From assembly GCA_016788315.1 (NCBI GenBank), contig JAEUSG010000385.1, positions 1 through 29,832 of the forward strand: DNA of 29,832 bases, read 5' to 3'. Position numbers and translations under genes: made by a program. Within the stretch, counting starts at the first letter, position 1. Each line of letters opens with the position of its first letter. Below the pieces are notes generated by a model. That model did no database searches. It worked only from the letters and a program-made list of their open reading frames with translations, and had not been told where the DNA came from. Shown here piece after piece: positions 3,111 to 23,221 of the stretch. This DNA is from Fibrobacterota bacterium (GTDB taxonomy: Bacteria > Fibrobacterota > OXYB2-FULL-49-7 > JAEUSG01).

Positions 3111-4040
3111 TTAATCCTCAACTTTTTCCGGCGAAACAAAAAAGTCAGTTATTCTGTTAAGATCCGCCGTATCGGTATAATGGATAACAAGTTTGCCTTT
3201 GTCTTTATTACTGTTTTGTATTTCTATTTTTGTTCCGAACAGTTTTGTAAGTCTGTCTATAAGCTCCATCATGTCAGGATCAATATCTATGCTCTCTTTT
3301 TTCTTATCGGAGGGAGCCTTTGATTCTGAAACAAGTTTTTCAACCTGACGCACATTGAGATCTTCTGTTATTATTTTGTTAAGAAGCTTTGTCTGTGCTG
3401 TTTCATCGCCGGAAGCAAGGAGCGCTCTGGCATGACCCGAAGAAATTTTCTTTTCGCGTAAAGCTGTTTTTACATCGTCCGGCAGCTTTAAAAGGCGTAA
3501 AGTATTTGAAACAAATGAACGGCTCTTTCCTGTGTCTTCTGCAAGTTTTTCGTGAGTATAGTTATACTGAGCAACAAGCTCCTGATATCCGAGCGCTATT
3601 TCATAATCGTTGAGATCGCTGCGCATCTGGTTTTCAACCAATGCCAGAATCTGCATTTCTCTGTCTGAAACCTTATCGCGGATTACTGCAGGAATATCCT
3701 GCATGTTGAGAGCGCGGACCGCACGGAGTCTGCGTTCACCTGAAACAAGTTCGTAGCGTCCTTTTGATTTCCTGACAATTACTGGCTCAAGAACACCATG
3801 TTTAGCGATAGAATCTTTAAGTTCCTTAAGATCTTCTTCGTTGAACTCTTCGCGAGGCTGATAGGGATTGGCTTCAATCTCTGAAACGGGAAGGGTGAAG
3901 TATCCGCCGGTTTCGCGTGAAACTGTCTGCGACTGCGGTGGGAGAGGGCTCCGCTCCGTTTCGTGCATTTCTACCGCTTCTTCGGAGATAAGGGCTTTAA
4001 GCCCCCTGTGTAGCGCTAATCTCTTCTTTTTGTCCGTCAT
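3111..4040 (-). CDS. parB: Chromosome partitioning protein ParB/Spo0J.
   Basis: The N-terminus has the KKKRLALHRGLKALIS arginine-patch-like motif. A ParB-box/HTH region is present (GYQELVAQYNYTHEKLAEDTGKSRSFVSNTLRLLKLP). Its start overlaps the parA 3' end. Confidence 0.9.
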   Translation of the reverse strand: MTDKKKRLALHRGLKALISEEAVEMHETERSPLPPQSQTVSRETGGYFTLPVSEIEANPYQPREEFNEEDLKELKDSIAKHGVLEPVIVRKSKGRYELVSGERRLRAVRALNMQDIPAVIRDKVSDREMQILALVENQMRSDLNDYEIALGYQELVAQYNYTHEKLAEDTGKSRSFVSNTLRLLKLPDDVKTALREKKISSGHARALLASGDETAQTKLLNKIITEDLNVRQVEKLVSESKAPSDKKKESIDIDPDMMELIDRLTKLFGTKIEIQNSNKDKGKLVIHYTDTADLNRITDFFVSPEKVED

Positions 4041-4836
4041 CTGTTGCTGTCCTGTTTCTGTTTATGATTTCTTCGGCAAGCTGGAAATAGTCCTCTGCGC
4101 CCGATGAGACAATATCATAGGCAAGTATGGGTTCGCCCATGCTTGGAGCTTCCGAAAGTTTTACGTTACGTCGAACCGGTGTTGTGAAAACCTTTTCTTT
4201 GAAATAGTCGCGCACATCTTGAGCCACCTGTTTTGACAGGTTAAGACGCGCATCGTACATTGTCAATAAAGCCCCTTCAATCTGGAGCTGACTGTTAACT
4301 GTTTTCTGAACCGTTCTTACAGTTGAAAGAAGTTCTGCCAACCCCTCAAGAGCGAAAAACTCGCACTGAATTGGAATAAGAACAGAATCTGCAGCAGCGA
4401 GAGCATTAAGCGTCAGCAGGGAGAGGGAGGGGGGACAGTCGATTATTATGAAATCAAATCTGTTTTTTATCTTCTCCAAAGCCTGTTTCAGCTTATACTC
4501 TCGGGCGATCATTTTAAAAAGCTCATACTCAGCGCTGACAAGGTCATTGTTTGAAGGTATGATGTTTATATATTCGTTGACATTTGTATAAGAAGGTTTA
4601 ACGATGATTTGGTTGATTGTATCTTCGTCAAGTTCTTCTGTCAGAATAAAGTCATACACAGACTTTTCAACAGCCCGTTTATTAAGACCCATGCCGGTAG
4701 TTGCGTTTCCCTGAGAATCCATATCGATCAGGAGAGTGCGCTGCTCCAGCACAGAAAGTGAGGCTGCAAGATTTACGGATGTAGTTGTTTTTCCTACTCC
4801 GCCCTTTTGATTTACAACGGCAATTACTTTTCCCAT
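3997..4836 (-). CDS. parA: Chromosome partitioning ATPase ParA/Soj.
   Basis: The deviant Walker A motif KGGVGKTTTSVNLA is present, and the length and architecture are ParA-like. Confidence 0.9.
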   Translation of the reverse strand: MGKVIAVVNQKGGVGKTTTSVNLAASLSVLEQRTLLIDMDSQGNATTGMGLNKRAVEKSVYDFILTEELDEDTINQIIVKPSYTNVNEYINIIPSNNDLVSAEYELFKMIAREYKLKQALEKIKNRFDFIIIDCPPSLSLLTLNALAAADSVLIPIQCEFFALEGLAELLSTVRTVQKTVNSQLQIEGALLTMYDARLNLSKQVAQDVRDYFKEKVFTTPVRRNVKLSEAPSMGEPILAYDIVSSGAEDYFQLAEEIINRNRTATDDGQKEEISATQGA

Positions 4837-4873: not shown

Positions 4874-5458
4874 TCAAGAAATAATAAAAGAGGAGAGTGT
4901 TCTTTTCTGACCATTATCCAAGTTATAAACATAGTTATCCACATTTTTAACTTTTACTTTATGTTTTTTTTCTATTTCTTCTATCTCATTATTTAACAAT
5001 GTGTTAAACGTTATAACCTGACCCTCTTTTTTGAGTAATGATAAAGCGCTTTCAACAAATTGAACGTTTTCCTTAAAAGCCCGGGAAATTACGATATCTG
5101 CGAACTTTGAGAACTCGCCCATCTCTTTCTCAACCCTAACATTATGGACCTTAAGATTCTTTATTCCGCACTTACGGCAGACATGGTCAAGAAAGATTGT
5201 TCTTTTCTCTCTAGATTCAAATGCGTGAAATTGGCAGTCAGGTTTAGCAATAGAAAGCGGTATAACAGGAAATCCGTTTCCGCTGCCGATATCTGCTACA
5301 ATAGATTTTCCTGATATTTTAGAGGCGGCGGCAAGTGAATCCTGCAAGTGGCGCTCTTTGAGAAATGGGATATCGTTTCGGGAAACAAGGTTAACCCTGC
5401 TATTCCATTTTATGATCTCTTCGATATATACTTCAAATAAGGATTCAGCCTCTGCCAT
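4874..5458 (-). CDS. rsmG: 16S rRNA (guanine527-N7)-methyltransferase RsmG (GidB).
   Basis: The product shows GidB family similarity, including a SAM-binding GSGNGFP motif. It lies in the conserved gidA-gidB-parA-parB order. Confidence 0.85.
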
Positions 5459-7298
5459 ATTTCACCATTATCATTAGTACCTGAATATCAGCAGGGGAGA
5501 TACCAGAAATTCTAGATGCCTGACCTAGTGTTGCAGGACGAATTTTTGTTAGTTTCTGCCTTGCTTCAAGAGAGAGATTGTGAACTGTGTTGTAATCTAT
5601 TTCAACCGGTATTTTAGCATTTTCCTGTTTTTCAAAATCTTCAGCCAATGCAATTTCTTTAAGAAGATAACCCTCATATTTTGTGAGGATCTCCATCCGC
5701 ATCCATTCCTCTTCAGAATAGGAAAACTCCTTTCCCAAAATTGGACGAAGGTCCTGATTTGTAATATCAGGTCTTTTTAATAGTGCAAAAGCCTTCACGC
5801 TCTCTTTGAGCTCTGAAAATCCTCTTTCCGCTAATAGAGGGTTTATCTTATCCATTGAAACCTTCTTATTCTTCAGACGCTCAACACCGGCATATATTCT
5901 CTCAATCTTTGCTGTTTGCTTTTCATAGAACCCTTTATCTATTAACCCAAGGTCATGACCTTTTTTCAGGAGCCTTTCATCAGCATTATCCTGCCTTAAT
6001 AAGAGCCTGAATTCTGCTCTGGAGGTAAACATTCTATATGGCTCTTCGGTCCCTTTTGTAACCAGGTCATCTATAAGTACACCGATATATGCCTCTGACC
6101 TTTTTAGTACTAACGGCTCCTTACCTAGTATTTTCAAACAGCAATTTATAGCAGCCATCAAACCCTGAGCAGCAGCCTCCTCATAACCGGAAGTACCATT
6201 TATCTGTCCGGCAAAATATAGGGAGGGAATAATCTTGGATTCAAGAGTTGCATTTAACTGAGTAGGGGGGAAGTAGTCATATTCAATAGCATACGCAGGG
6301 ACTGATATTTCACAGTTTTCAAGACCTGGAATTGTGCGGAGAAGTTTTTGCTGAAAATCTGCCGGGAAGCAGTTTGAAAAACCGTTAAGATAAATATCGG
6401 GTAGATTGTATCCTTCAGGCTCTATGAACAGCTGGTGAGACTCTTTATCAGCAAAATTTATAAGCTTTGTCTCAATTGATGGACAGTATCTAGGACCTGT
6501 AGATTTTATGATCCCGGAAGCCATAGGGGAGAGGGCAAAGTTTTCTCTAATGAGTTTATGAGTCTCTTCCGTAGTTCTGGTGATGTAGCAGGGGAGCTGT
6601 TTTCTGTTAATCTCTTCAGTTCTATAAGAGAAAGGAGATGGAGGAAAGTCCCCCTGCTGTTCTGAAAGTTTTGAACAATCTATAGAACTTTGTTTAATTC
6701 TCGCCGGAGTACCTGTTTTAAGCCTGGCAGTTCTAACTCCCTTTGAAACAATACTTTCTGTAAGTCCTGTACTGTTTTTTTCACCTATTCTACCCGCTGA
6801 AATCTGTTCATTACCAATGTGGATAAGTCCGTTCAAAAAAGTGCCGCAACAGAGAATAACCCCTTTTGCGCTGTATTCTGAGCCTTTTTCTGTTTTTACC
6901 CCTGTGCATAACCCGCTCTTTTCATATATCAAAGAATTTACAGAATCTTCAATTATTTCAATACCAGAAAGAGAAGAGGCATACTTTGAGGCCTCTATCA
7001 TATATTCATCTTTATCTATTTGAGCCCTCGGACCCCACACTGCAGGACCCTTACTTTTATTAAGCATTCTAAACTGAATACCTGTTTTATCTGTAAGAAT
7101 TGCCATAATTCCGCCAAGAGCATCTATTTCACGAACCATATGCCCTTTTGCCAGACCACCAATAGCAGGATTACAGGACATCTTAGAAATTGCACTTTTA
7201 TTATGAGTAATTAGTAGTCCGGAGAGAGAAAACTTTGAAACTATGGTAACCGCCTCTAAAGCTGCATGACCACCGCCTACTATAATGACATCAACCAT
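5445..7298 (-). CDS. mnmG: tRNA uridine-5-carboxymethylaminomethyl modification enzyme MnmG (GidA).
   Basis: The N-terminal FAD-binding motif [15 protein letters not shown] is present. The 617-aa product has GidA-family similarity throughout. Confidence 0.9.
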
Positions 7299-7309
7299 TT
7301 ACCGCCCAT

Positions 7310-7325
7310 TGTTTCACGTGAAACA
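7310..7325. promoter_or_regulatory. parS site (ParB-binding centromere). It is a perfect 16/16 match to the consensus TGTTTCACGTGAAACA.
   Basis: The sequence is tgtttcacgtgaaaca, a palindrome lying 12 nt upstream of the mnmG start codon. Confidence 0.8.
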
Positions 7326-7644
7326 TTCTATGTTTATGATCCTCTGTTATTTATCTGAAAAATACATTTTTTTGATATCTGTTATCGAGTGCTTAATTAT
7401 TGTTTTATCTGGCTTCGAGAGCCTCAGCCAGTTTTTTTCTTTTTGTCGGGCACTGAGCCTGTCGAAGTGCCGTTTTCCCAATATATACATCTGTTATCTC
7501 TAAGAAATCCTCTGGCTTCGACAAGCTCAGCCATCGGAGTAGTTATATTCTTTTTTACACTTTCTAGCACTTAAGGTCTCAAAGGGCCTGTTTCCTTATG
7601 CATATGCTGGCTTCGAGAGCCTCAGCCAACGGAAGAATTAAAAA

Positions 7645-7668
7645 GATCCATCTGTTATTTTTGTAAAA
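7645..7668 (+). repeat. 24-mer iteron-like motif, copy 1 (gatccatctgttatttttgtaaaa).
   Basis: This is a direct read. Related copies lie at 7754-7777, 7897-7920, 8038-8061, 8193-8216 and 8323-8346, with a degenerate copy at 7338-7362. Confidence 0.7.
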
Positions 7669-7692
7669 GATTGTTTTCTTCTCTCCCGTGCC

Positions 7693-7736
7693 CTGAGCGT
7701 AGCCGAAGGGCAATTTCTGGCTTCGGCTACGCTCAG
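7693..7736. repeat. Perfect 16-bp inverted repeat (stem-loop), built from two opposite-orientation copies of the 15-bp element.
   Basis: ctgagcgtagccgaag at 7693-7708 and cttcggctacgctcag at 7721-7736 are exact reverse complements, separated by a 12-nt spacer. Confidence 0.7.
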
Positions 7737-7753
7737 CCAGCGGGCATATTAAA

Positions 7754-7777
7754 GATCCATCTATTATTTCTGTAAAA
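7754..7777 (+). repeat. 24-mer motif, copy 2 (gatccatctattatttctgtaaaa).
   Basis: It matches copy 1 at 22 of 24 positions. Confidence 0.7.
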
Positions 7778-7896
7778 ACTTGTCTTTCTTTCGGGCCCTG
7801 AGGCTCTCGAAGAGCCAAATCCTCATTTTTTAGGATAGGTTTTAGTATCCCAAAATTTTTTATGCCTATTCTAGGGCTTCTTATGAGTTCAAAAAA

Positions 7897-7920
7897 GATC
7901 CCTCTGTTATTTTTGTAAAA
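7897..7920 (+). repeat. 24-mer motif, copy 3 (gatccctctgttatttttgtaaaa).
   Basis: It matches copy 1 at 23 of 24 positions. It is followed by a conserved tail, tattgcgtttttagcgtaatttcagc, shared with copy 6. Confidence 0.7.
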
Positions 7921-8037
7921 TATTGCGTTTTTAGCGTAATTTCAGCGTTTTATTATTTTAATATTTCTTCTTGTTCTTTTATTGATTTTCATTATTCCTT
8001 GCTGGCTTCGAGAACCTCAGCCAGCGGACAACATAAA

Positions 8038-8061
8038 TATCCATCTGTTATTCCTGTAAAA
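8038..8061 (+). repeat. 24-mer motif, copy 4 (tatccatctgttattcctgtaaaa).
   Basis: It matches copy 1 at 21 of 24 positions. Confidence 0.65.
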
Positions 8062-8192
8062 ACATGTCTTTCTCCCGGGCCCTGAGGTTCTCGAAGGGCC
8101 ATTTTCTGTTGGCTGAGCGTAGCCGAAACCAGTATTACTGGAAAAGATCTATTTGCTGGCTTCGAGAGCCTCAGACAGCTAAGAAGTAAAAA

Positions 8193-8216
8193 GATCCATC
8201 TGTTAATTTTGTAATA
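8193..8216 (+). repeat. 24-mer motif, copy 5 (gatccatctgttaattttgtaata).
   Basis: It matches copy 1 at 21 of 24 positions. Confidence 0.65.
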
Positions 8217-8322
8217 ATCAAAATTTGTCTTTCTTTAACTTTTATGAGCTCATTTTTCAAGATAGGTTTTGGTATCCCAAAACTTTTTAAGGCCATTCTA
8301 GGGCCTCTAATGAGGTCAAAAA

Positions 8323-8346
8323 GATCCATCTGTTATTTTTGTAAAA
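8323..8346 (+). repeat. 24-mer motif, copy 6 (gatccatctgttatttttgtaaaa).
   Basis: It is identical to copy 1. It is followed by the tail tattgcgtttttagcttaatttcagc, then parS site 2. Confidence 0.7.
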
Positions 8347-8389
8347 TATTGCGTTTTTAGCTTAATTTCAGCACTTTTTATTATCAATT

Positions 8390-8405
8390 TGTTTCACGTG
8401 AAACT
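8390..8405. promoter_or_regulatory. parS site 2, a 15/16 match (tgtttcacgtgaaact).
   Basis: It shares an identical 16-bp core (ttgtttcacgtgaaac) with site 1, which lies 1080 bp away. It sits between the repeat array and the DnaA-box cluster. Confidence 0.75.
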
Positions 8406-8479
8406 AAGCTTTGAACATCCACTGATTTAAGATCTTTATTTGTATTCAGTATGTATAAACTAAAAACATAAATAGAAAA

Positions 8480-8634
8480 GCATGTTAAAAATGTTGATAA
8501 GTACATAAATGTTGATAAATCAATATCTTGCAATATCTAAATATTGTTGATAACTTTGATTATAAATGTTTATATCTTTTTGATAAAGATTGGTTTATAA
8601 ACATTGTGGATAAGTTCAATAGTTATAAACAAGA
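8480..8634. promoter_or_regulatory. Putative oriC core: a DnaA-box cluster plus an AT-rich unwinding region.
   Basis: Five co-oriented DnaA-box-like 9-mers are present: TGTTGATAA at 8492-8500, 8510-8518 and 8545-8553; TTTTGATAA at 8578-8586; and the perfect E. coli-type TGTGGATAA at 8605-8613. They are interspersed with very AT-rich tracts (ttataaatgtttatatcttttt) and lie immediately beside dnaA. Confidence 0.55.
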
Positions 8635-9936
8635 TTATTGGTCGATTATCAACTTTGTAATGTTGAAAACATCATTACTTACTGTCTGATCTTTTTCTAT
8701 CAATTTTTCAATAGTTTGACATCCATGAATAATAGTACTGTGATCTTTCATAAATATCTTACCAATACTTTTTAATGTTGAATTAGTCATTTTCTTAGAA
8801 AGGTACATAGCCATCTGCCGAGGAATTACATTCTCTTTTTCGCGGCTTCCCTTAATAATCTTTTCTTTGGATGTCTTATAATATTGTGCAACTTTATCTA
8901 CTACCTCTTCCACGTATACCTTCTTCATACCGGAATCATTTTTAAAACTCAATATTTCTACAGCTTTTGTATAATCGACATCAACATTATACATAGAAGA
9001 ATATGCCAGAATTTTAATCAGGTATCCTTCCATTTCCCTAATATTACTTGAAGCATTCCTTGCAATGTACTCAATAACATCTTCAGATATATTCAACTGA
9101 TTTTTTGTAGCCTTCTTATGAAGTATTGCTACTTTGGTTTCAAAGTTTGGCGGTTGAATATCAACGGTTAACCCAGACTGAAATCTTGAAACAAGTCTAT
9201 CCTCAAGGCCATCAAGATCTTTTGGGATTTTATCACTTGTAATTACAATCTGTTTCTTGGAAAGAAAAAGGTCATTAAAAATGTGAAAAAAGACCTCTTG
9301 AGTTCCCTGTTTCCCCGAAAGGAATTGAATATCATCCATTAACAGAAGATCACAGTTTTTATAAAGAATACTGAATTCGTCGCTTTTTTTCTGTTCTATG
9401 AACTTTATGTATTCATCAACAAATTGAACAGAGCTGGTATAAACGACATTAGCCTTTTGATTTGAGGCTAAAACATGATTTCCTATAGCCTGCAAGAGAT
9501 GTGTTTTACCTAAACCGCTCTTTCCATATATAAAGAGGGGATTAAATTTGGTCGCGCCGGGTGTTCCTGCAACTGCAAAAGCAGCAGAATGGGCAAATTC
9601 ATTGTTTTTTCCTACAATAAAGCTGTCAAAATTGTAGTCTTTGTTGAGATTTGTTTTAAGCCTATTGTTTTTAAGTGTGTCAGCTATATTGAGATCAGAC
9701 TCAAATTTTACTACCAGGCTCTTTCCGGAGAGCTTTGCGACTGTTTCACATATGACATCGCTGAACTTATCTTCTAGGAAATGTGAATGAATTTCTCCTT
9801 TTGAGGTTAAAAGGACTATCTCAGAATTACTGATATCCTTAACTCTTAAAGGTTCAATCCAGGTTTTGTAGCTTTCTGCGGGAATCTGGCTGCTTATTTC
9901 AATAAGGCAGTTATTCCAAAAAGATTGTATATCCAT
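8635..9936 (-). CDS. dnaA: Chromosomal replication initiator DnaA.
   Basis: AAA+ Walker A (GKSGLGKTHLLQAIGN) and the C-terminal DnaA DNA-binding domain are present. The likely true start is the ATG at 9934-9936 (MDIQSFWNNC...), which has AGGAGA about 13 nt upstream. The ORF-track N-terminal extension to 10041 overlaps rpmH and is unlikely to be real. Confidence 0.9.
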   Translation of the reverse strand: MDIQSFWNNCLIEISSQIPAESYKTWIEPLRVKDISNSEIVLLTSKGEIHSHFLEDKFSDVICETVAKLSGKSLVVKFESDLNIADTLKNNRLKTNLNKDYNFDSFIVGKNNEFAHSAAFAVAGTPGATKFNPLFIYGKSGLGKTHLLQAIGNHVLASNQKANVVYTSSVQFVDEYIKFIEQKKSDEFSILYKNCDLLLMDDIQFLSGKQGTQEVFFHIFNDLFLSKKQIVITSDKIPKDLDGLEDRLVSRFQSGLTVDIQPPNFETKVAILHKKATKNQLNISEDVIEYIARNASSNIREMEGYLIKILAYSSMYNVDVDYTKAVEILSFKNDSGMKKVYVEEVVDKVAQYYKTSKEKIIKGSREKENVIPRQMAMYLSKKMTNSTLKSIGKIFMKDHSTIIHGCQTIEKLIEKDQTVSNDVFNITKLIIDQ

Positions 9937-10025
9937 AAGTTTAGTTTTATCTCCTAGGTTGAAAATAATTATTTTAGCAAACTCTCTAAGTACATATAAA
10001 AGAAGAAAAAGAAAGGGATTATTAA

Positions 10026-10175
10026 ATGCGTCAGCAGACACTCAACAGAACATCCAACAAGAAGCGGACAACAAAACACGGTTTCCGTAAGAGAATGAAA
10101 ACAAAGAACGGCAGAAAAGTTCTTGCTAACAGACGTAAAAAGGGACGTAAGAAGTTAACAGTTTCTGACGAATAA
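10026..10175 (+). CDS. rpmH: 50S ribosomal protein L34.
   Basis: I translated this by eye. The 49-aa product is [49 protein letters not shown], which matches the L34 family (KRTxxHGFRxRMxTKxGRxVLxxRRxKGRKxL). It is absent from the ORF track because it is under 60 aa. Confidence 0.85.
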
Positions 10176-10187
10176 TTCTTTAAAATT

Positions 10188-10481
10188 TTGAAGCCGACAT
10201 TTCTCGGGAAAAAATTTAGGGGAGAGCTCTTTGATTTTATTATCAGGATTGACAAACAAAAGTCGGTCCTTCAGCTGTTCTTTTCAATATCAAAGAAACA
10301 TTTTAATGCCGTAAAAAGGAACACCATTAAGCGAAGGATAAAAGAGTTTTACAGAACACAATATCCTTCGCTTACAGGTGAACTTCATTATTTTATTAGA
10401 AAGCCTTTTTCTCTTTCAAACAAAGAGATTCTTCGAAACGCAATGAATAAGTCATTAGAAAAGATCATAGAGATTAAATGA
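10188..10481 (+). CDS. rnpA: Ribonuclease P protein component RnpA.
   Basis: The RnpA signature AVKRNTIKRRIKE is present. It sits directly downstream of rpmH as in most bacteria. The start appears to be TTG and its exact position is uncertain. Confidence 0.7.
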   Translation: MKPTFLGKKFRGELFDFIIRIDKQKSVLQLFFSISKKHFNAVKRNTIKRRIKEFYRTQYPSLTGELHYFIRKPFSLSNKEILRNAMNKSLEKIIEIK

Positions 10482-12664: not shown

Positions 12665-15600
12665 TTGAAAAAGTTAGGATTTCTTCTATTTTTTGCCGTT
12701 TTCTGCTATTCAGCAGATTCTACGCACGTATTCTGGAATAAATGTGTAACTAACGGCTATTCAGTTTCATCCAATCCAGGTCCAAATCTGCCTTCCGTTT
12801 CTGTGAAACATGAAGGAATGGTAGCAACAGGCTCATATGATGTTTCGGGGAACTTCGTTAATACAGAATTTAGTCTGGGTTCAGGCCATTATGATAACAG
12901 AGGTAAAAGTTCATTTGTCTGGTTTAAAGATCTCAACCATTTACAGGGAACAGTAACTACTGCAAAACTCAGAGGAGAATATAAAGACGGCTTTTCAGAT
13001 ACAGCATTATGCAGCAATGGCCCCATCTCTCTTCGGGTTGGTATTGTTGATTTTTCACAGAACCTGAATATGATGGGTGGTGAAAGCGGAGTGCCGGAAA
13101 ATGCGGTATGGCAGGATTATGATAATCGCCTGCAGTACGATATGTCCTATTCAAATGGTTTTACAGGACTAATGGCAGAAGACAGTGTAAACATCTCAGC
13201 GTTATCCGGACGGAGCGGCAGATTTATCCGCAGCGTTCTTGATAAACAGTTTTTTGAAATTGATGTTACAAAACAGATCAATTGGATTCTTTCACACACC
13301 GGTTCAAATAAGGGGGGATTCAGCGGTCAATATGCAATTGTATTGCTTTCACCGGTAGGTAAAGGTAGCACTGGCAGGGTAACTCTATACAGTACCGAAG
13401 ATGGCATTTTAGGACCATCTGAAGAGGGGAGTGATTCGGCGTGGACCTCTGATGGAAACACAATCCATCTAGTTGCATCAGGAAATCTCATTCCAGCTGC
13501 CCCGGATACCTTACCCGGGTTCATTTTTGACGTTTGGAACGATGCTGATTCAGCAGCAGTTACTGTAGGTTTAAACAATTTCAAAAAGACAGTAGATTCT
13601 ATCTTTGTTTACAGAGATAGTATATTAATTCATCAACAAAAAAATGAATTCTACCGCATATGGGATGTAAACACCTCTATTTACAAAAATGCTTTTTACA
13701 CTCTTGCCATAAAATATACTGACGCATCAACAGATACATTTTTCAAATATTATAGGGCATATATACCATCCTTTAACGGGTGGTTTAGAAATGACATTCG
13801 CAGAATAGTTATTGATTGGGGATTTTCAGGAGCAAGAACAGATAGTTATGAATTATTCAGAGACGGGGTTAAACTAGGATCTTTTCCAGATTCTGTTCGT
13901 TCATTTACTGATAACGGAGCGGATCCATATCAGGATCACAGATATAAAATGGTCTTTCATTTTGTAAACAATGGGAGAACGGATTCAATTTTTTACAACT
14001 ATCAGGCTGCCATGGCACCGGAACCGGAACTTTGGTGCGGAAACACCTCTCTTCTTCAGACAATGATGTCGGGTAAAGGGGTTGTATATAAACAGAGATA
14101 TAGCACACACCATCGAAATGTAACATCAGTTTCTCTTCCATTTACCATTCCATCCTTTGAGGGAGGAATTTACATAACAGGAAACATAGATTCTATCGGT
14201 TTTGATACTTTGGTTGCTATCGCAGCATACGATACCTGCAGTCATCTTCCCATTTATAAATCTGGACAGGACAATATTGTTTTTGCAGCACTCGATGATA
14301 TAAGCTGGCTTCGCGGTCCTACAATGTGGACCTGGTTTAATCATGCAAGTAAACTTCCATTTGTCAACTGGAATAATGTTCACAAACCAGTAAAGTTTTA
14401 TACGATTTATAGAGATGGAGTTTATGCAGGAACTCCATCGATAAATGATATGCAGTATGCGGATACAACGGCTGATATTTATACAGATCATAATTATCAG
14501 ATGATCATAACATATCAGGACTTTTCTACAGACACATTGAATGCATTATACTCAAGACAGACTCCTCCACAGCCCCAGCCATATTGCGGATCTCCATCTG
14601 TTGCCGGAAATGTTATTTCCACCAAGGGACTGCTATGCCGAATCGGTGGGGATTCACTGTTTCGCCAGGTAACAAATCCAGGGGTACCATTCCCTGCTCC
14701 GAAATCTCCAATGCATACATTGGTTGTGGGTAAAGTTGATTCCATTACGGATACGCTAGTAATTCTCGGGAAAGGGGATAGCTGCGGTTCGCTCTTTTTA
14801 TCAAACGGTAAAGCGGTTGCTGCAAAGTTAAATGAATATAATTACATCCGTGGAGTACAATTCTGGGCTTACTATGATAACTGGCCGAAAAAGGTTAGAG
14901 TTGACTGGACTGGGATAGGTAAATCTGTTAACTACTATGAAATACTCAGAAATTCGGTTAGAGTTGCAACATTTCCAGGCGTTAATGGAACAGGATGGAT
15001 TGACACAGCAGTAAGCCCATATGCGAATTACACGTACAGATTGCGCGTCTTTTTTATGGATTCGACAGCAGATAGCGCTGATGCAGATTATAAGGCAGTT
15101 GCGATTCCTCCTCCTGCTCCATTCTGCGGAACACGGACAGAAGCGCAGAATAGTGTCAATTCAAGAGGGATAACCTGTATTTCAAACCATGATTCACTTT
15201 TGCAGAATGTTTCAATTGCCGGACCTGTATTTCCTGCTCCGAAATCTCCTTCAAATTATTTGATACCTGGAAAAATAGGAACAGCTTCAGACACCTTTGT
15301 AATCCTTGGAAGTGGTGATTCATGCGGTAAGCTTCATTTTGCAAAAGATAGCAAACAGGCCGTAGCAAGGCTTAATGAATACAGCTATATCAGAGGGCCG
15401 ACATTGAATGTATGGTATCATGATGGGATGCAGGTTGTAAAGATTCAGTGGAATGGGATAGGAGGATCTGTTGATTATTTTGAACTTCTGCGCGATGGAC
15501 AGACAATAGTCAGCAATTATAACGGAACATGGAATTATGATGACTATTCAGCGGATGCATTTACAAATCACACATATCTTTTGCGCATATTTAAGAGCGG

Positions 15601-18600
15601 AGTTGCCATAGATTCCTTGACCGCTGGCTATATGGCTAAAAACCCTTATCAGAATCCTGTTGTGTGGTGCGGTTCACCAGGAATTCTGCAGGATACACTA
15701 TCAAGACATGGATCATCGCTTCGTGTACATTGGGATACGTTGCCCATACCTGTTTCAAGAGTGGATAATCCATTTTCAAACAGTAAATATCCTGGTGCAG
15801 TGCTGATGCTGGGTGAGTGGTTTGATAAGGAAAAGAATGTTACAGTAACAGATACAATGGTGGCAATGGGAATTAATGGAAAATGCGCAAGTTTGATAAT
15901 GAGTAAAACAAGTGCAGCATATTTTTGGAGGCTTAAAGACTGCTATATGCTTCAACCTCCCTATTTCTCAGCCTGGTGGCAGCAGGATTCCGGTTTTATA
16001 AGAGTTGAATGGGGAAATTTCAAGCGGCCGGTTGAAGGGTATGTTCTTTACAGGGATACAACGAGAATATATAGCGCTACCGGTACAAATGTCTGGCATT
16101 TCTTTGACAGATCCGGAGTAAAAGAAAATAATTATCAGTATAAGATTCTTGTAAACTACCAGGATTCGACCTCTGAATGGTTTTATGCCAACTACAGCAA
16201 TCAGGGAGGAAACACAGGAAAAGAGATGCCGCCGATCTACTGCGGTACAGATGCTATGCTAACGGCTGCTTTAGCAGGAAAAACGGTGCAGTTCATTGTG
16301 CCGTGGGATTCAGCAGCCAGACCTTTTACCAGAAGCAGCAACCCTTTTCTGCTGCAGGGAACTTCAAATGTTTGGGCTCTCTTAGGAAAAGAGGGCAGCA
16401 ATACGTATTCGGATACTTTTCTCGCTTTAGGCAAAATTGGAACGTGTTCGGATCCTCTTTTTTCTAAAGATATGAAGTCGGTTGTCTTTGCAAGAATTCA
16501 GGAATATCCATTCATCCGTGGACCTAGACTGATGTCATGGTTTTTCTACGACAGCAACTGTGTCTCACTTAACTGGGGCGGATTTCAGGGTACAGTAACT
16601 ACCGCTACACTTTTCAGGGATAATCAGTTTGTTAAATCATTTCCTGGAAGTTCTACATTCTATAATGATTATATGACTGATCCGTCGATAAAACATCTCT
16701 ATGTTCTTATAGTAAAGACAGGAACATCAACAGACACACTATACTCTAATTACAGTAAAGATGGGGACGGCGGCGGAAGTGGAGGAGGCCGTGATTTTAA
16801 TTTTGACGGTAAATGGGGATATGAAGGCTCATATACCTTTAACTTGATGAAAATGACAGGCAACAAGGCAGATTCCGGTAAAAGCGGATATGTTTACAGA
16901 TGGGGTATAAAGAAAGAATCCGTTATAATTGATTCTGTAACAAGACTCCTTCAGACGCCGGTAACGTTTAATGTTTCGTTCAGAAAAATTACTGATGCCT
17001 CTTTTATAAACCTGTTATCATTTTCTGTCAAAAAGGCAGACAGCTGTTATGGATACAATGTGAAGGATACAGTTTTCGGCATAGGAATATATCAGAAAAG
17101 AGTTATTGTTGTAGCTGGGGCAGAAATAGACACTATTTATAATTACTTTACATCAGGAGTAGCAGTTCCGGTCAGCTTAAACAATGTCATATCAATAAAC
17201 CTTTCAAAAATTGCGTCAGTTAATCTTGGAACAAAGAGTACGGCTTTTATAAGCAATTATTCAGAGGATGGAAAATTGCTTCCTGCACCATCCGGGAACA
17301 TGCTGACCTTCAGCCACACTGTGCCGAATGTTAATACTATTTACAAAACAATAAGCTATATAGCAGATGGTCTCCCGTTCGGTCTTATCCTTATGGCTAG
17401 CGGAACTCTTGAAGGGGGTCAGAAAACGCTTTCAGCAGGTCCTGCTAAAGAGGATGGATATGTAACCTTTGACGGGACAGTCAGAATGGAAATTGAAGGA
17501 GAAGGCATACCAAAGAGCGCTTCGGATATGCAGCAATCCGGCAGACAGGATAAAATTCTTTTCTCTTCACTGAGGATATATTCCGGTTCTATGATGGACA
17601 CAGTAAAGCTTCCTCTTGACTCAGGAAAGGTAACATTCAATTCCGGACCCGATCATGCAGGCAAGCGTATCAGTATAAAGGGTATTGATACACTCCTTGG
17701 TATTACAGTTGATGCGCCAGCCGGTCGTGTATTCCATATTGGTGCCTCTGATAAGAGTGTTGTTGGCATAACTAACGGAACGGAGAGTCGATACTATACA
17801 GTTGCTGCAGCGGTTATGGCAGGAGAAAAAACAATTAAACTGCCTGCGGCTGAATATAAGGGAATGCCCATTGCGCTTTATCAAATGGCGGGCATCACAA
17901 TAACAGGTGAAATACAGGGAGAGAAAAAGACTTTAATAGATGCTGATGGAAATGATGCCGGTATATGGCTCAAGGAGGTTGCATCAATAGGAATCAGAGG
18001 AGTATCAGTTCGTAAAGGGAATGTTTCGCTTTCTGCGAATACAGTAAGCGGTATTACATTTGCACAGTGCAGAGTAACAGGCTCGCTTAACGGAGTAGTA
18101 ATATTTGCTCCTGAAGGAGATTCTTTTTCAACACTCAGCCCTAAAACAAAAAATTGCACAATAGAAAACTGCGTTGCTGACAGTATTGCCGGATTTGCCT
18201 TTCTTATAGATAGACCTGTTGATTGCCGTATTGCTAATAATACGGTTGTATCGGCCGTATACGGAGCATATATGGGCCGTGGTGGCAATAGTCGAAAGGT
18301 TTCATTGCCTCTTACCGGTAATACAGCGTCAAATAATATATTCCGAAATTGCAAAGCCGGTTTTGTTCAAGGACTTGATAACAGCATGGACAACATAGGT
18401 TTTACTTATAACGCAAATATATTCCAAAGCTGTGACAGCGGAGCCTTTTCATCAAGTTATACTACTGATCCAGTTTTCCGCACAGTTAGACAGAGTGCTC
18501 CTGCCGGGTGCATTGAAATTGCTGCAAATGAAAATTCAATATCTGCATCTTTCCCGTATATACCCGTTATTGGCAGTTCAGTTCATGATAAAGGTCTTAG

Positions 18601-20230
18601 AACTTCAATGTCGCCTTTAACAGATTTTAGAGGAAGTCCTCGTGTATTGTCAAATTCTTTGGATATCGGTGCCTTTGAACTTTTCGATCTTAGAATGGGC
18701 TTCAATCTTCTAGCTAAAAGAGCGGCAGAAGGCTGTGCCTTTGTCCGGTACACTCTTACTGCACCCGATTCAGGATCCTTTACACAGGTGCAGATGGTTT
18801 TAAAGAAAGATGGTGCTGCTTTTACATCCGGAAAAACAATGCTGGAACAGATGAGTAACAGTACTGTTGTCACCTGGTATCCTCTTGTTCAAGGTTCCTA
18901 TCAATTTGATTTCTCTACAAGATATACATCAACAATGTTTGATACCACATTTACATTAAGCGATACTTTTTCAGTGCAGAACGATGCTTATGTTGTTAAA
19001 GGCGGCCTGTGGAACATGGTTGGTTATGCCGATGCATCGAATACAAAAGTAAAACAGGAGAGCGCAATATCCGCTCTCTCTGATTCCTCTCTTTACGTTT
19101 GGGATCAGACGACAACCTCATACTCCCTTCTTTCATCACAGCCAGATACTTTAGTGCACCGGGGCAGCAGCTATTGGAATATGCCAGATTCAGATGTGAC
19201 TATATCATGGGCACCTGAGGTTTACAGTGCACCGGACACATCCGATTTTATACTCAACCTTAAAGCCGGCTGGAATCTTGTAAGTTCTCCTTTTCCATTT
19301 GCCGTAGCAGTTCCAGGAAAGAAGTTCTGGCACTACGATAACATTTTGGCAGACTACAGAGGATACGATCTTCTGCGTCCCCTTGCCGGAAGCTGGATTC
19401 TTGCAGACAGCAACACTGCAATAACAGTCAAATACAAACCGGGATTCGGAGATACAGCTTTTGCAGCAAAGATTTCGGGAGTTCAGTACAGGAGTTCCTC
19501 CGATTGGTCTATTGCTTTGTTGGCAAATGTAGCTGGTAAAAATCTGGAAGGAAGAATTGCAGGTGTTTCATCTGAAGCAAAAGGATTGCTGGAACCTCTT
19601 CCTCCAATCGGTCCATCAGGTGTTTCTGTCTGGTTCCAGAACGGGAAAGCAGCTGGAGTAAATGCGAAGCTCTTTAAAGAATTGAAAAAGCCTGATAACG
19701 AAAACTATGAATGGATTTTTGTTGTAGAGCCTTCTGGAAGAAAAGGAGAGGTTACAATCAGCGGTGATGGAATAAAGGAACTGGAAGCATTCAAATACGT
19801 TTATGTGGGCAGTCCATCTACAGGCTTTACAGATATAAAGCAGGGTTCTCATACATTTAATTCCGATGGAAAAAGAACAGCTCTTGCACTTATAGTAACA
19901 AATGACAAAGGGATAATGGACAGATATACAGCGGACTTCTCTCTAGCTCAGAATACGCCCAACCCCTTTAACCCTATAACATCAATCTCTTTCTTTGTGC
20001 CGATGTCCTGGGATACAAAAGAGGGTTTCATTTCAAAGGAAAGAACGGTAGAGCTCTCTATTTATGATATAAGAGGAAAGAGAGTTGCTACTCTTTCGAG
20101 AGGTCAATTAGCCGGCGGGAAAATGTATACCGTCAACTACGATGCTAAAAACAGCCCTTCAGGAGTATATTTCTGCAAGCTCGTTTCCGGTAAATATGAA
20201 AGCACCAGAAAGATGCTTCTTGTAAGGTAA
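12665..20230 (+). CDS. Giant (~2521 aa) secreted modular protein with a T9SS C-terminal sorting domain. It has a signal peptide, a ~450-aa N-terminal region, five tandem ~180-aa modules (each a Cys-containing subdomain plus an FN3-like domain), a Gly linker, a right-handed parallel beta-helix (pectate-lyase-like) region and the CTD.
   Basis: It uses a TTG start with a strong GGAGGGAGA Shine-Dalgarno sequence 6-8 nt upstream. The signal peptide is MKKLGFLLFFAVFCYSADS. Tandem modules are marked by (W/Y/F)CG(S/T/N) plus IRGP plus W..G......Y.L.RDG motifs. PbH1-like repeats are present (NNTVVSAVYG..., NNIFRNCKAGF...). The C-terminus (NPFNPITSISF...ELSIYDIRGKRV...SGVYFCKL...TRKMLLVR) fits the T9SS type-A CTD pattern. 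Confidence 0.8.
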   Translation: MKKLGFLLFFAVFCYSADSTHVFWNKCVTNGYSVSSNPGPNLPSVSVKHEGMVATGSYDVSGNFVNTEFSLGSGHYDNRGKSSFVWFKDLNHLQGTVTTAKLRGEYKDGFSDTALCSNGPISLRVGIVDFSQNLNMMGGESGVPENAVWQDYDNRLQYDMSYSNGFTGLMAEDSVNISALSGRSGRFIRSVLDKQFFEIDVTKQINWILSHTGSNKGGFSGQYAIVLLSPVGKGSTGRVTLYSTEDGILGPSEEGSDSAWTSDGNTIHLVASGNLIPAAPDTLPGFIFDVWNDADSAAVTVGLNNFKKTVDSIFVYRDSILIHQQKNEFYRIWDVNTSIYKNAFYTLAIKYTDASTDTFFKYYRAYIPSFNGWFRNDIRRIVIDWGFSGARTDSYELFRDGVKLGSFPDSVRSFTDNGADPYQDHRYKMVFHFVNNGRTDSIFYNYQAAMAPEPELWCGNTSLLQTMMSGKGVVYKQRYSTHHRNVTSVSLPFTIPSFEGGIYITGNIDSIGFDTLVAIAAYDTCSHLPIYKSGQDNIVFAALDDISWLRGPTMWTWFNHASKLPFVNWNNVHKPVKFYTIYRDGVYAGTPSINDMQYADTTADIYTDHNYQMIITYQDFSTDTLNALYSRQTPPQPQPYCGSPSVAGNVISTKGLLCRIGGDSLFRQVTNPGVPFPAPKSPMHTLVVGKVDSITDTLVILGKGDSCGSLFLSNGKAVAAKLNEYNYIRGVQFWAYYDNWPKKVRVDWTGIGKSVNYYEILRNSVRVATFPGVNGTGWIDTAVSPYANYTYRLRVFFMDSTADSADADYKAVAIPPPAPFCGTRTEAQNSVNSRGITCISNHDSLLQNVSIAGPVFPAPKSPSNYLIPGKIGTASDTFVILGSGDSCGKLHFAKDSKQAVARLNEYSYIRGPTLNVWYHDGMQVVKIQWNGIGGSVDYFELLRDGQTIVSNYNGTWNYDDYSADAFTNHTYLLRIFKSGVAIDSLTAGYMAKNPYQNPVVWCGSPGILQDTLSRHGSSLRVHWDTLPIPVSRVDNPFSNSKYPGAVLMLGEWFDKEKNVTVTDTMVAMGINGKCASLIMSKTSAAYFWRLKDCYMLQPPYFSAWWQQDSGFIRVEWGNFKRPVEGYVLYRDTTRIYSATGTNVWHFFDRSGVKENNYQYKILVNYQDSTSEWFYANYSNQGGNTGKEMPPIYCGTDAMLTAALAGKTVQFIVPWDSAARPFTRSSNPFLLQGTSNVWALLGKEGSNTYSDTFLALGKIGTCSDPLFSKDMKSVVFARIQEYPFIRGPRLMSWFFYDSNCVSLNWGGFQGTVTTATLFRDNQFVKSFPGSSTFYNDYMTDPSIKHLYVLIVKTGTSTDTLYSNYSKDGDGGGSGGGRDFNFDGKWGYEGSYTFNLMKMTGNKADSGKSGYVYRWGIKKESVIIDSVTRLLQTPVTFNVSFRKITDASFINLLSFSVKKADSCYGYNVKDTVFGIGIYQKRVIVVAGAEIDTIYNYFTSGVAVPVSLNNVISINLSKIASVNLGTKSTAFISNYSEDGKLLPAPSGNMLTFSHTVPNVNTIYKTISYIADGLPFGLILMASGTLEGGQKTLSAGPAKEDGYVTFDGTVRMEIEGEGIPKSASDMQQSGRQDKILFSSLRIYSGSMMDTVKLPLDSGKVTFNSGPDHAGKRISIKGIDTLLGITVDAPAGRVFHIGASDKSVVGITNGTESRYYTVAAAVMAGEKTIKLPAAEYKGMPIALYQMAGITITGEIQGEKKTLIDADGNDAGIWLKEVASIGIRGVSVRKGNVSLSANTVSGITFAQCRVTGSLNGVVIFAPEGDSFSTLSPKTKNCTIENCVADSIAGFAFLIDRPVDCRIANNTVVSAVYGAYMGRGGNSRKVSLPLTGNTASNNIFRNCKAGFVQGLDNSMDNIGFTYNANIFQSCDSGAFSSSYTTDPVFRTVRQSAPAGCIEIAANENSISASFPYIPVIGSSVHDKGLRTSMSPLTDFRGSPRVLSNSLDIGAFELFDLRMGFNLLAKRAAEGCAFVRYTLTAPDSGSFTQVQMVLKKDGAAFTSGKTMLEQMSNSTVVTWYPLVQGSYQFDFSTRYTSTMFDTTFTLSDTFSVQNDAYVVKGGLWNMVGYADASNTKVKQESAISALSDSSLYVWDQTTTSYSLLSSQPDTLVHRGSSYWNMPDSDVTISWAPEVYSAPDTSDFILNLKAGWNLVSSPFPFAVAVPGKKFWHYDNILADYRGYDLLRPLAGSWILADSNTAITVKYKPGFGDTAFAAKISGVQYRSSSDWSIALLANVAGKNLEGRIAGVSSEAKGLLEPLPPIGPSGVSVWFQNGKAAGVNAKLFKELKKPDNENYEWIFVVEPSGRKGEVTISGDGIKELEAFKYVYVGSPSTGFTDIKQGSHTFNSDGKRTALALIVTNDKGIMDRYTADFSLAQNTPNPFNPITSISFFVPMSWDTKEGFISKERTVELSIYDIRGKRVATLSRGQLAGGKMYTVNYDAKNSPSGVYFCKLVSGKYESTRKMLLVR

Positions 20231-23078: not shown

Positions 23079-23221
23079 AAAAACGCTCCTTGAAAGAATT
23101 GCCGGAAAAATCGTACAATACAACTGTTATATGATTTTAAGTTAAACTAAAAGAACTTAAAATTCCTGTAAAATACGAACCAAAACATGTAAGAAAAGTA
23201 CAAAATGGTTTTATCTATTAA

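Follow-up and report, generated by a model that had tools for sequence, protein, structure and literature searches.

Where does replication of the chromosome begin in the Fibrobacterota, a phylum from which, to our knowledge, no replication origin has been characterized experimentally? The question is raised here by contig JAEUSG010000385.1 of a Fibrobacterota metagenome-assembled genome, the whole of which (29,832 bp) was analyzed and is hereafter called the window; window-wide counts refer to this full length. A first-pass annotation had proposed that binding sites for the initiator protein DnaA (DnaA boxes), clustered between dnaA and mnmG, mark the chromosomal origin, oriC. This interpretation was supported by the non-random clustering of the boxes, their conservation among relatives, an adjoining AT-rich tract, a parS site and the flanking genes, and we predict, with a probability of roughly 0.8, that positions 8390-8634 are oriC or part of it. 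The predicted origin would lie immediately downstream of dnaA and, because no box cluster is present upstream of that gene, would be monopartite.

Results

DnaA boxes between dnaA and mnmG

The box cluster lies within the 1,336 non-coding bases that separate dnaA (8635-9936, minus strand, 433 amino acids, ATG start at 9936; NCBIfam TIGR00362, E = 2.9e-140) from mnmG, also called gidA (5445-7298, minus strand; TIGR00136, E = 5.8e-244). It begins 3 bp past the dnaA stop codon, in agreement with the earlier placement of the origin directly downstream of the dnaA 3′ end. Transcription of dnaA points towards the cluster, and mnmG is transcribed away from the predicted origin. The absence of dnaN after dnaA was likewise borne out by annotation of the window, in which mnmG is the next gene; dnaN was found neither beside dnaA nor elsewhere in the window.

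All five minus-strand 9-mers on which the prediction had been based were recovered, spanning 122 bp. Read on the plus strand, these are three copies of TGTTGATAA (8492-8500, 8510-8518 and 8545-8553), one of TTTTGATAA (8578-8586) and TGTGGATAA at 8605-8613, an E. coli-type box; TGTTGATAA is one mismatch and TTTTGATAA two mismatches from TTATNCACA. The surroundings, estimated earlier at about 80% AT, were measured at 78.7% AT for 8480-8634. Four additional boxes were found beyond the earlier five, at 8567-8575, at 8483-8491 (weak), and in inverted orientation at 8595-8603 and 8623-8631. The array therefore totals seven to nine DnaA boxes, the majority in the dnaA direction, and the statement that all boxes are co-oriented holds for the five named but not for the array, in which the two boxes at 8595 and 8623 are inverted.

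The number of boxes was compared with chance expectation. The motif TGTKGATAA occurs six times in the window, where 0.66 occurrences are expected. With up to one mismatch, TTATNCACA occurs seven times in 8400-8634 and 0.51 times on average in shuffled sequences, and none of 5,000 shuffles reached seven. The shuffled sequence was 8400-8634 itself, so that local AT composition was kept; because shuffles of this composition never reach the observed count, the cluster cannot be put down to AT-richness. Scanning of boxes across the contig, one of the checks that had been proposed, gave 8492-8631 as the unique top cluster: six of the ten exact TTATN[A/C]ACA sites of the contig fall there, and every other 250-bp window holds at most two. 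The divergent spacer between dnaA and rpmH (9937-10025, 89 bp), said earlier to hold no comparable cluster, contains no box at up to one mismatch. No other cluster was seen within the 29.8 kb or within the 21-kb loci of the relatives described below.

Two exact boxes with C at position 6 (C6 boxes) were also observed inside mnmG, 85 bp apart and in the dnaA orientation (TTATCCACA at 6818-6826 and TTATGCACA at 6903-6911). They are probably chance occurrences, since a scan for TTATCMACA inside mnmG of two relatives, L002 and L003, gave no match.

Conservation of the boxes in related genomes

Ten related loci with DnaA 56-89% identical to that of the window were compared (L006, L007, L001, L002, L008, L003/L011, L009/L012, L010 and L013). 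They were gathered by DnaA scans of public genome and metagenome contigs, which contributed six loci, and by exact-sequence look-ups. The gene order yidC-yidD-rnpA-rpmH, then divergently dnaA, mnmG, rsmG, parA and parB, is kept wherever the contig is long enough. In L002, L003, L009 and L010 the spacer between dnaA and mnmG is 190-250 bp long and 73-87% AT, and mnmG is directly adjacent to it. The spacer is the top box cluster in L002, L003 and L007 as well.

A box consensus for the lineage was derived with no prior motif by counting gapped 9-mers of the form XXXXNXXXX in nine spacers. The commonest is TTATNAACA, present 18 times in the dnaA sense and eight times in antisense in seven of the nine spacers, followed by TTTTNAACA and ATATNAACA, both one-mismatch variants of it. 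The lineage box consensus is thus TTATNAACA, with A rather than C at position 6. The boxes also keep their positions: in the five closer genomes they lie at offsets of 3/6, 21/24, 48/51, 59/62, 81/84, 116-119 and 133-136 bp from the dnaA stop codon. In the five-genome alignment mean pairwise identity is 77% in box columns and 47% in non-box columns, and within the boxes position 5, which is N in the consensus, is 36% identical against 82% at the other eight positions. Random placement of nine 9-bp blocks never equalled the identity of the box columns (P < 0.0002). Conservation of box columns with position 5 left free is the pattern predicted by selection on DnaA boxes, and no other line of evidence argues as strongly for functional sites as this alignment pattern.

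These results bear directly on whether the boxes could be functionless words that resemble DnaA boxes by chance, accumulated in an AT-rich stretch between genes or in a terminator. The AT content of the spacer is 78%, and over the whole window the count of TTATNCACA at up to one mismatch is 40 against 32 expected, which is not significant. The local shuffles and the box-column conservation both speak against this explanation, as does a promoter and terminator scan of 7200-10250, which found no terminator-like hairpin downstream of dnaA and gave counts no better than shuffles. A chance origin of the boxes is effectively refuted.

Individually, the boxes can be followed from the dnaA stop codon outwards. 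Box A (TTATAAACA, 8623-8631, plus strand), 3 bp past the stop and inverted relative to the main array, has a counterpart TTATRAACA at the same offset and in the same orientation in L006, L007, L001 and L002. Box B (TTATCCACA, 8605-8613, minus strand) is the sole E. coli-type (C6) box of the array, and the orthologous sites read TTATTAACA, TTATAAACA, ATATAAACA or TTACTAACA. Box B2 (TTATAAACA, 8595-8603, plus strand) is inverted; L001 and L002 have TAATAAACA at the corresponding offset. Box C (TTATCAAAA, 8578-8586, minus strand) is present at the same offset in four relatives as TTATCAAAA, TTATCAAGA or TTATAAAGA. A 2-bp gap, giving 11-bp phasing, separates it from box D (ATATAAACA, 8567-8575, minus strand), for which the orthologous sites are TTATCAACA, TTATGAACA and ATATAAACA; the boxes at 8578, 8567 and 8545 are spaced by 11 and 22 bp. 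Box E (TTATCAACA, 8545-8553, minus strand) is retained as TTNTNAACA in L001, L002, L003, L006 and L007, and box F (TTATCAACA, 8510-8518, minus strand) is conserved in L006 and L007 only.

Among the strong boxes, box G (TTATCAACA, 8492-8500, minus strand) lies farthest out, facing the candidate DNA-unwinding element (DUE). It is also the most widely conserved, reading TTATTAACA, ATATGAACA, ATATCAACA, TTATGAACA and TTATCATCA in L006, L007, L001, L002 and L003, respectively, and is thus still recognizable at 61% DnaA identity (L003). The spacer of L009 (58% DnaA identity), which was not aligned, holds TTATTAACA at an offset similar to that of box G. Abutting box G on the DUE side is the weak box G2 (TTTTTAACA, 8483-8491, minus strand), so that the array ends in a tandem pair in which TTATCAACA at 8492 is nearer the consensus and the weaker TTTTTAACA at 8483 lies towards the DUE. 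Weaker DUE-side boxes beyond box G are also present in L006 (TTATTAACA-tt-TTATTCACC), L002 and L001.

parS and the candidate unwinding element

The spacer of the window holds two sites resembling parS, the binding site of the partition protein ParB. The consensus of B. subtilis parS is TGTTNCACGTGAAACA. The origin-side site, TGTTTCACGTGAAACT at 8390-8405, has one mismatch to this 16-bp sequence and a perfect 14-bp core, GTTTCACGTGAAAC. The mnmG-side site at 7310-7325, which precedes the mnmG start codon by 12 bp, is a perfect copy of TGTTTCACGTGAAACA, which we take to be the canonical ParB-binding palindrome. The two copies share 16 identical bp (repeat D12, origin-side copy 8389-8404), and the chance expectation for the palindrome in the window is 0.15. 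The genes for ParA and ParB lie 3.5 kb from the origin-side site. A perfect parS core was found 191-252 bp past the dnaA stop codon not only in the window but also in each of the ten related genomes. One layout is shared: the dnaA stop codon is followed by the box array, a box-free AT-rich stretch of about 55-90 bp, parS and mnmG. The distance from parS to the mnmG start codon is no more than about 10-25 bp in L002 and L003. In most bacteria parS marks origin-proximal DNA, with sites usually scattered over kilobases around oriC. Here parS lies within the origin spacer itself.

Sites with one mismatch to the 14-bp parS core were also observed within parB of the window (3909-3924) and of L002 (10886) and within parA of L010 (8303). 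The site in parB recalls the parS inside B. subtilis spo0J.

The candidate DUE (8406-8482) consists of about 77 bp of AT-rich, box-free DNA between boxes G/G2 and parS. It falls inside the least stable duplex tract of the contig, and the low stability of the region is in favor of an origin here. Read on the plus strand the boxes are TGTTGATAA, and the box-free AT tract is on their 5′ side. Next to the boxes is a run of seven NAN triplets on the plus strand (AAC TAA AAA CAT AAA TAG AAA, 8458-8478), 13 bp from box G; it is followed by AGCA, the weak box TGTTAAAAA and then TGTTGATAA. In B. subtilis such triplets, the DnaA-trios, belong to the basal unwinding system (BUS), reportedly described by Richardson in 2016 and by Pelliciari in 2021. 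According to the BUS rule, three or more NAN triplets lie no farther than 16 bp from a box, on a prescribed strand and side, and the modal spacer of 13 bp is made up of a weaker box and about 4 bp of gap (PMC8287927). By this rule, which is a weak criterion in A-rich DNA, the run in the window is rare among local shuffles (P = 0.025). Seven triplets are also present in L002 (P = 0.04), and the runs in L006, L007 and L009 are not significant. The run at 8458-8478 is compatible with DnaA-trios, an assignment that is not established.

GC skew and the weighing of the prediction

Several observations weigh against an origin at 8390-8634. The raw cumulative GC-skew minimum, the first check that had been proposed, falls at 9525, which is within dnaA and some 0.9 kb away from the cluster; in the raw skew, gene strand is confounded with position. 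Skew was therefore separated by side and gene strand. To the left of the predicted origin it is +0.022 over all positions, read on the plus strand, and -0.124 at third codon positions for plus-strand genes, and -0.067 and +0.029, respectively, for minus-strand genes. To the right, the corresponding values are +0.073 and -0.013 for plus-strand genes and +0.021 and +0.161 for minus-strand genes. After strand correction the replication-associated skew is about 0.035 (all positions) or about 0.06 (third positions), and it changes sign between the two sides of 8.5-10 kb. Same-strand genes of L012 have skews of -0.024 to the left of the site and +0.017 to its right, and L013 gives no skew signal; in the relatives examined (L011, L012 and L013) skew is too weak to decide the matter. 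The strand-corrected sign change is compatible with the predicted origin, but the signal is weak, has kilobase resolution and comes from 29.8 kb. It is too coarse to separate a site downstream of dnaA from the dnaA-rpmH spacer, so the box and conservation data decide between the two.

The candidate DUE provides further points of this kind. The tract 8405-8490, which had been named as a candidate DUE in the earlier annotation, is 76.7% AT and does not exceed the box region in AT content or instability. Across the contig, duplex stability is lowest in the 100-bp window from 8486 and in the 60-bp window from 8531. A search of the candidate DUE for 13-mer repeats gave a best pair of 9/13 (P = 0.97), and L001 and L003 are without a trio-like run. 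Assignment of the DUE rests on geometry and not on thermodynamics: the proposal of 8405-8490 agrees with its position relative to the orientation of the boxes but not with a distinct base composition or stability, and we consider the odds on its exact placement to be about even. The candidate DUE was also folded on both strands, with z-scores near 0 and no secondary structure. Among the relatives, the most distant (L008, L009 and L010) have few exact boxes and the spacer is not their top cluster. Motifs resembling TTATNAACA are easier to match in 78% AT DNA, an effect that the local shuffles control. Finally, the analysis covered a single 29.8-kb contig of the genome, and a second cluster may lie elsewhere, for example near dnaN.

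These points raise the question of whether the cluster could instead be a regulatory or titration site for DnaA, either similar to datA or DARS or an operator for dnaA read-through or for the promoter of mnmG-rsmG-parAB, with the true origin elsewhere. Such a role would suit the view of a single contig of the genome and a GC skew too weak to locate the origin. It would also suit the start of mnmG about 10-25 bp from parS in relatives, where the mnmG promoter must overlap the spacer, and the conserved box pair in rsmG described below, which implies that boxes are used beyond the main cluster, plausibly for regulation. Against it stands the combination of at least seven boxes, an AT-rich tract, parS and the genes dnaA, rpmH, mnmG and parAB across ten genomes, which is an origin signature. 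The skew that does exist switches sign here, and neither the window nor the 21-kb loci of the relatives hold another cluster. We regard a purely regulatory or titration role as unlikely, and an origin at 8390-8634 as the preferred interpretation.

A secondary box pair is present on the plus strand at 4923-4943, in the 3′ end of rsmG and upstream of parA, and consists of TTATAAACA, a 3-bp gap and TTATCCACA. A pair is found at the same place in L002, L003, L009 and L010, 57-110 bp before the rsmG stop codon. The perfect box of the pair flips orientation between lineages, over different amino acids (VDN versus IHN, INS or INI), which argues for selection at the level of DNA. The pair may possibly serve DnaA control of parAB.

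Could this pair, or the repeat array described below, be the second module of a bipartite or extended origin, as in B. subtilis and H. pylori? The pair is kept in five genomes despite the changed box orientation and amino acids, parS flanks the array on both sides in the window, and L008 has two parS copies, all of which would favor such an arrangement. The array, however, is absent from L002, L003, L009 and L010 and hence cannot be essential, and, with no boxes in the spacer upstream of dnaA, the locus departs from the layout of B. subtilis. The rsmG pair is 2.5-3.6 kb away, and its TGTTTATAA box coincides with a conserved V-Y-K/N codon run. A bipartite origin therefore seems very unlikely, and a monopartite origin directly downstream of dnaA is favored.

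DnaA residues and the A6 box

The shift from C to A at position 6 of the box (A6 box) was considered in light of DnaA itself. The base-contacting residues of E. coli DnaA are R399, P423, D433, H434, T435 and H439 (PMC7561715). In an alignment to 1J1V, the DnaA of the window has R, K, D, H, S and H at these six positions. Its domain IV (encoded at 8635-8970) thus carries K for P423 and S for T435, along with a one-residue deletion before the DH pair. Of the 120 closest homologues, 98 have the K/S pair in the context LK.IG...DHST, members of the Fidelibacterota/Marinimicrobia among them. The genome of a K/S member of the Fidelibacterota carries two copies of TGTTGATAA plus TGTTGATAG upstream of dnaA. 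In a member of the Bacilli with P/S, the boxes are of the C6 type (TTTTCCACA and TTATCCACA).

The T435S substitution as a sufficient cause of the A6 box was ruled out, as the Bacilli DnaA with DHST uses C6 boxes. Because the P/S genome keeps C6, P423K and not T435S is the candidate correlate of the A6 box; that P423K lies behind it is a lead from three genomes and not a result. A search of the literature available to us found no prior description of the TTATCAACA-type box variant or of a Fibrobacterota origin.

The repeat array and neighboring genes

Between the predicted origin and mnmG is a non-coding repeat array of 1,064 bp (7326-8389) with a copy of parS at each end. The description of the origin as next to mnmG is therefore accurate in that mnmG is the next gene, but not in distance, as 1,064 bp of repeats and two parS sites (about 1.1 kb) intervene. 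The array contains six co-oriented copies of GATCCATCTGTTATTTTTGTAAAA spaced by 109-155 bp. It also contains a 130-bp duplication (7822-7962 and 8249-8388) and ten small GC hairpins whose loop reads CTGAG-N5/6-CGAAG; the hairpins occur in both orientations, and some have compensating changes in the stem. These elements are confined to this spot in the contig. No known RNA was found in the spacer or array with Rfam, either at gathering thresholds on the window and four relatives or in a permissive scan of 7250-8700. Two repeat units folded on both strands gave z-scores near 0, with no structured-RNA signal. An open reading frame spanning the array, judged spurious, had no matches in a search of a protein database. 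A speculative reading takes the array motif TATTTTTG for a -7 promoter element of the Bacteroidetes type.

Two weak copies of the core, 144 bp apart, occupy the same place in L006, the closest relative. In L008 an unrelated insert of 600 bp lies between two parS copies (5548-5563 and 6174-6189). The site beside parS is evidently a hot spot of sequence gain, and the duplicated sites suggest that parS or the adjoining site may be an insertion hot spot with target duplication. A different block of 60-76 bp (TTGACA...GAAGCGTTTTAAG...) was observed right after parS in L001 (2517-2590), L006 (1565-1640) and L007 (5542-5620). It is 77-83% conserved among these three and not recognizable in the window; each of their contigs stops a few hundred bases or less from it.

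The other genes of the locus are of the classic origin-proximal kind. On one side are rpmH (10026-10175, plus strand) and then rnpA, yidD and yidC, also on the plus strand; on the other are mnmG and, on the minus strand, rsmG (4874-5458), parA (3997-4836) and parB (3111-4040), all identified with NCBIfam. The window further encodes a bactofilin, an HtrA-like protease and two proteins with sorting domains of the type IX secretion system (T9SS). These two, encoded at 12665-20230 (2,521 amino acids) and 20280-23123 (947 amino acids), have a C-terminal T9SS sorting domain as their sole recognizable domain, which fits an organism of the Fibrobacteres-Chlorobi-Bacteroidetes (FCB) group. A tRNA scan of the window gave no match.

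Discussion

The predicted Fibrobacterota origin is of a standard kind and would be mildly unusual in its A6 box consensus and its built-in parS. The earlier comparison was with the gidA-oriC-mioC arrangement of E. coli. This likeness holds for mnmG, which flanks the DUE side and is transcribed away, and for the polarity from boxes to DUE. In E. coli the 13-mers lie 5′ of box R1, TGTGGATAA, and the outermost box here, like R1, reads TGTNGATAA on the strand with the DUE at its 5′ side. The likeness does not extend to mioC, GATC enrichment or 13-mers. The other flank is occupied by dnaA and not mioC, whereas dnaA of E. coli is unlinked (about 40 kb away). There is one GATC in 235 bp (4.3 per kb against 4.0 per kb for the contig, no enrichment), there are no 13-mer repeats, and mnmG is 1.1 kb away behind the repeat array.

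The locus is closer to incC, the half of the B. subtilis origin that lies downstream of dnaA, in which boxes 6/7, DnaA-trios and the DUE occupy the spacer between dnaA and dnaN. In both cases the unwinding module is just downstream of dnaA, dnaA is transcribed towards it, and an AT-rich tract lies beyond the boxes. As in the BUS, the terminal boxes are in tandem, with the better box distal and the weaker proximal to the DUE (PMC8287927). The NAN run likewise lies at the modal 13-bp spacer, although unlike in the BUS it is not present in all relatives. Further differences from B. subtilis are the absence of a cluster upstream of dnaA, which also sets the locus apart from the bipartite origins of B. 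subtilis and H. pylori, mnmG instead of dnaN as the downstream gene, A and not C at position 6 of the box, and a parS that directly bounds the DUE.

The parS site resembles other origin-proximal ParABS centromeres in being a 16-bp palindrome with parA-parB nearby. It is unlike them in lying less than 100 bp from the last DnaA box, at a fixed position in all eleven genomes, and in being duplicated around an insertion in two lineages.

From what is known of E. coli and B. subtilis, initiation at this locus might proceed as follows. ATP-DnaA would fill the boxes through domain IV, and an oligomer would grow from the terminal pair at 8492/8483 into 8406-8482. There its AAA+ domains would capture one strand, for which the NAN triplets at 8458-8478 are candidate DnaA-trios, and opening of the duplex would lead to helicase loading. 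ParB would load at 8390-8405, beside the unwinding site, so that the new origin would be the first DNA handed to ParAB. Transcription of mnmG would run away from the DUE, as that of gidA does in E. coli, and, as in B. subtilis, dnaA alone would be transcribed against the direction of the rightward fork.

The locus provides a well-delimited candidate origin of 245 bp together with a lineage-specific box consensus, TTATNAACA. Origin-prediction tools that seek TTATCCACA would under-score TTATNAACA, and estimates of growth from peak-to-trough ratios in metagenomes depend on the location of the origin. A DnaA with P423K offers a testable hypothesis for the drift of box specificity. It may be, although we hold this tentatively and think it somewhat doubtful, that in the lineage, and possibly in the wider FCB group, DnaA recognizes the shifted TTATNAACA, in which A replaces an otherwise almost universal C at position 6, through K in place of P423, and that parS is integral to the origin in the eleven genomes and also a preferred site of insertion with duplication. 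The cassette of dnaA, boxes, DUE, parS and mnmG would be a compact system in which ParB loading and DnaA unwinding fall within 100 bp. The result extends the standard model of a bacterial origin to an uncultured lineage and does not overturn current understanding; if true, a parS fixed in position would imply that ParB loading is physically coupled with origin firing.

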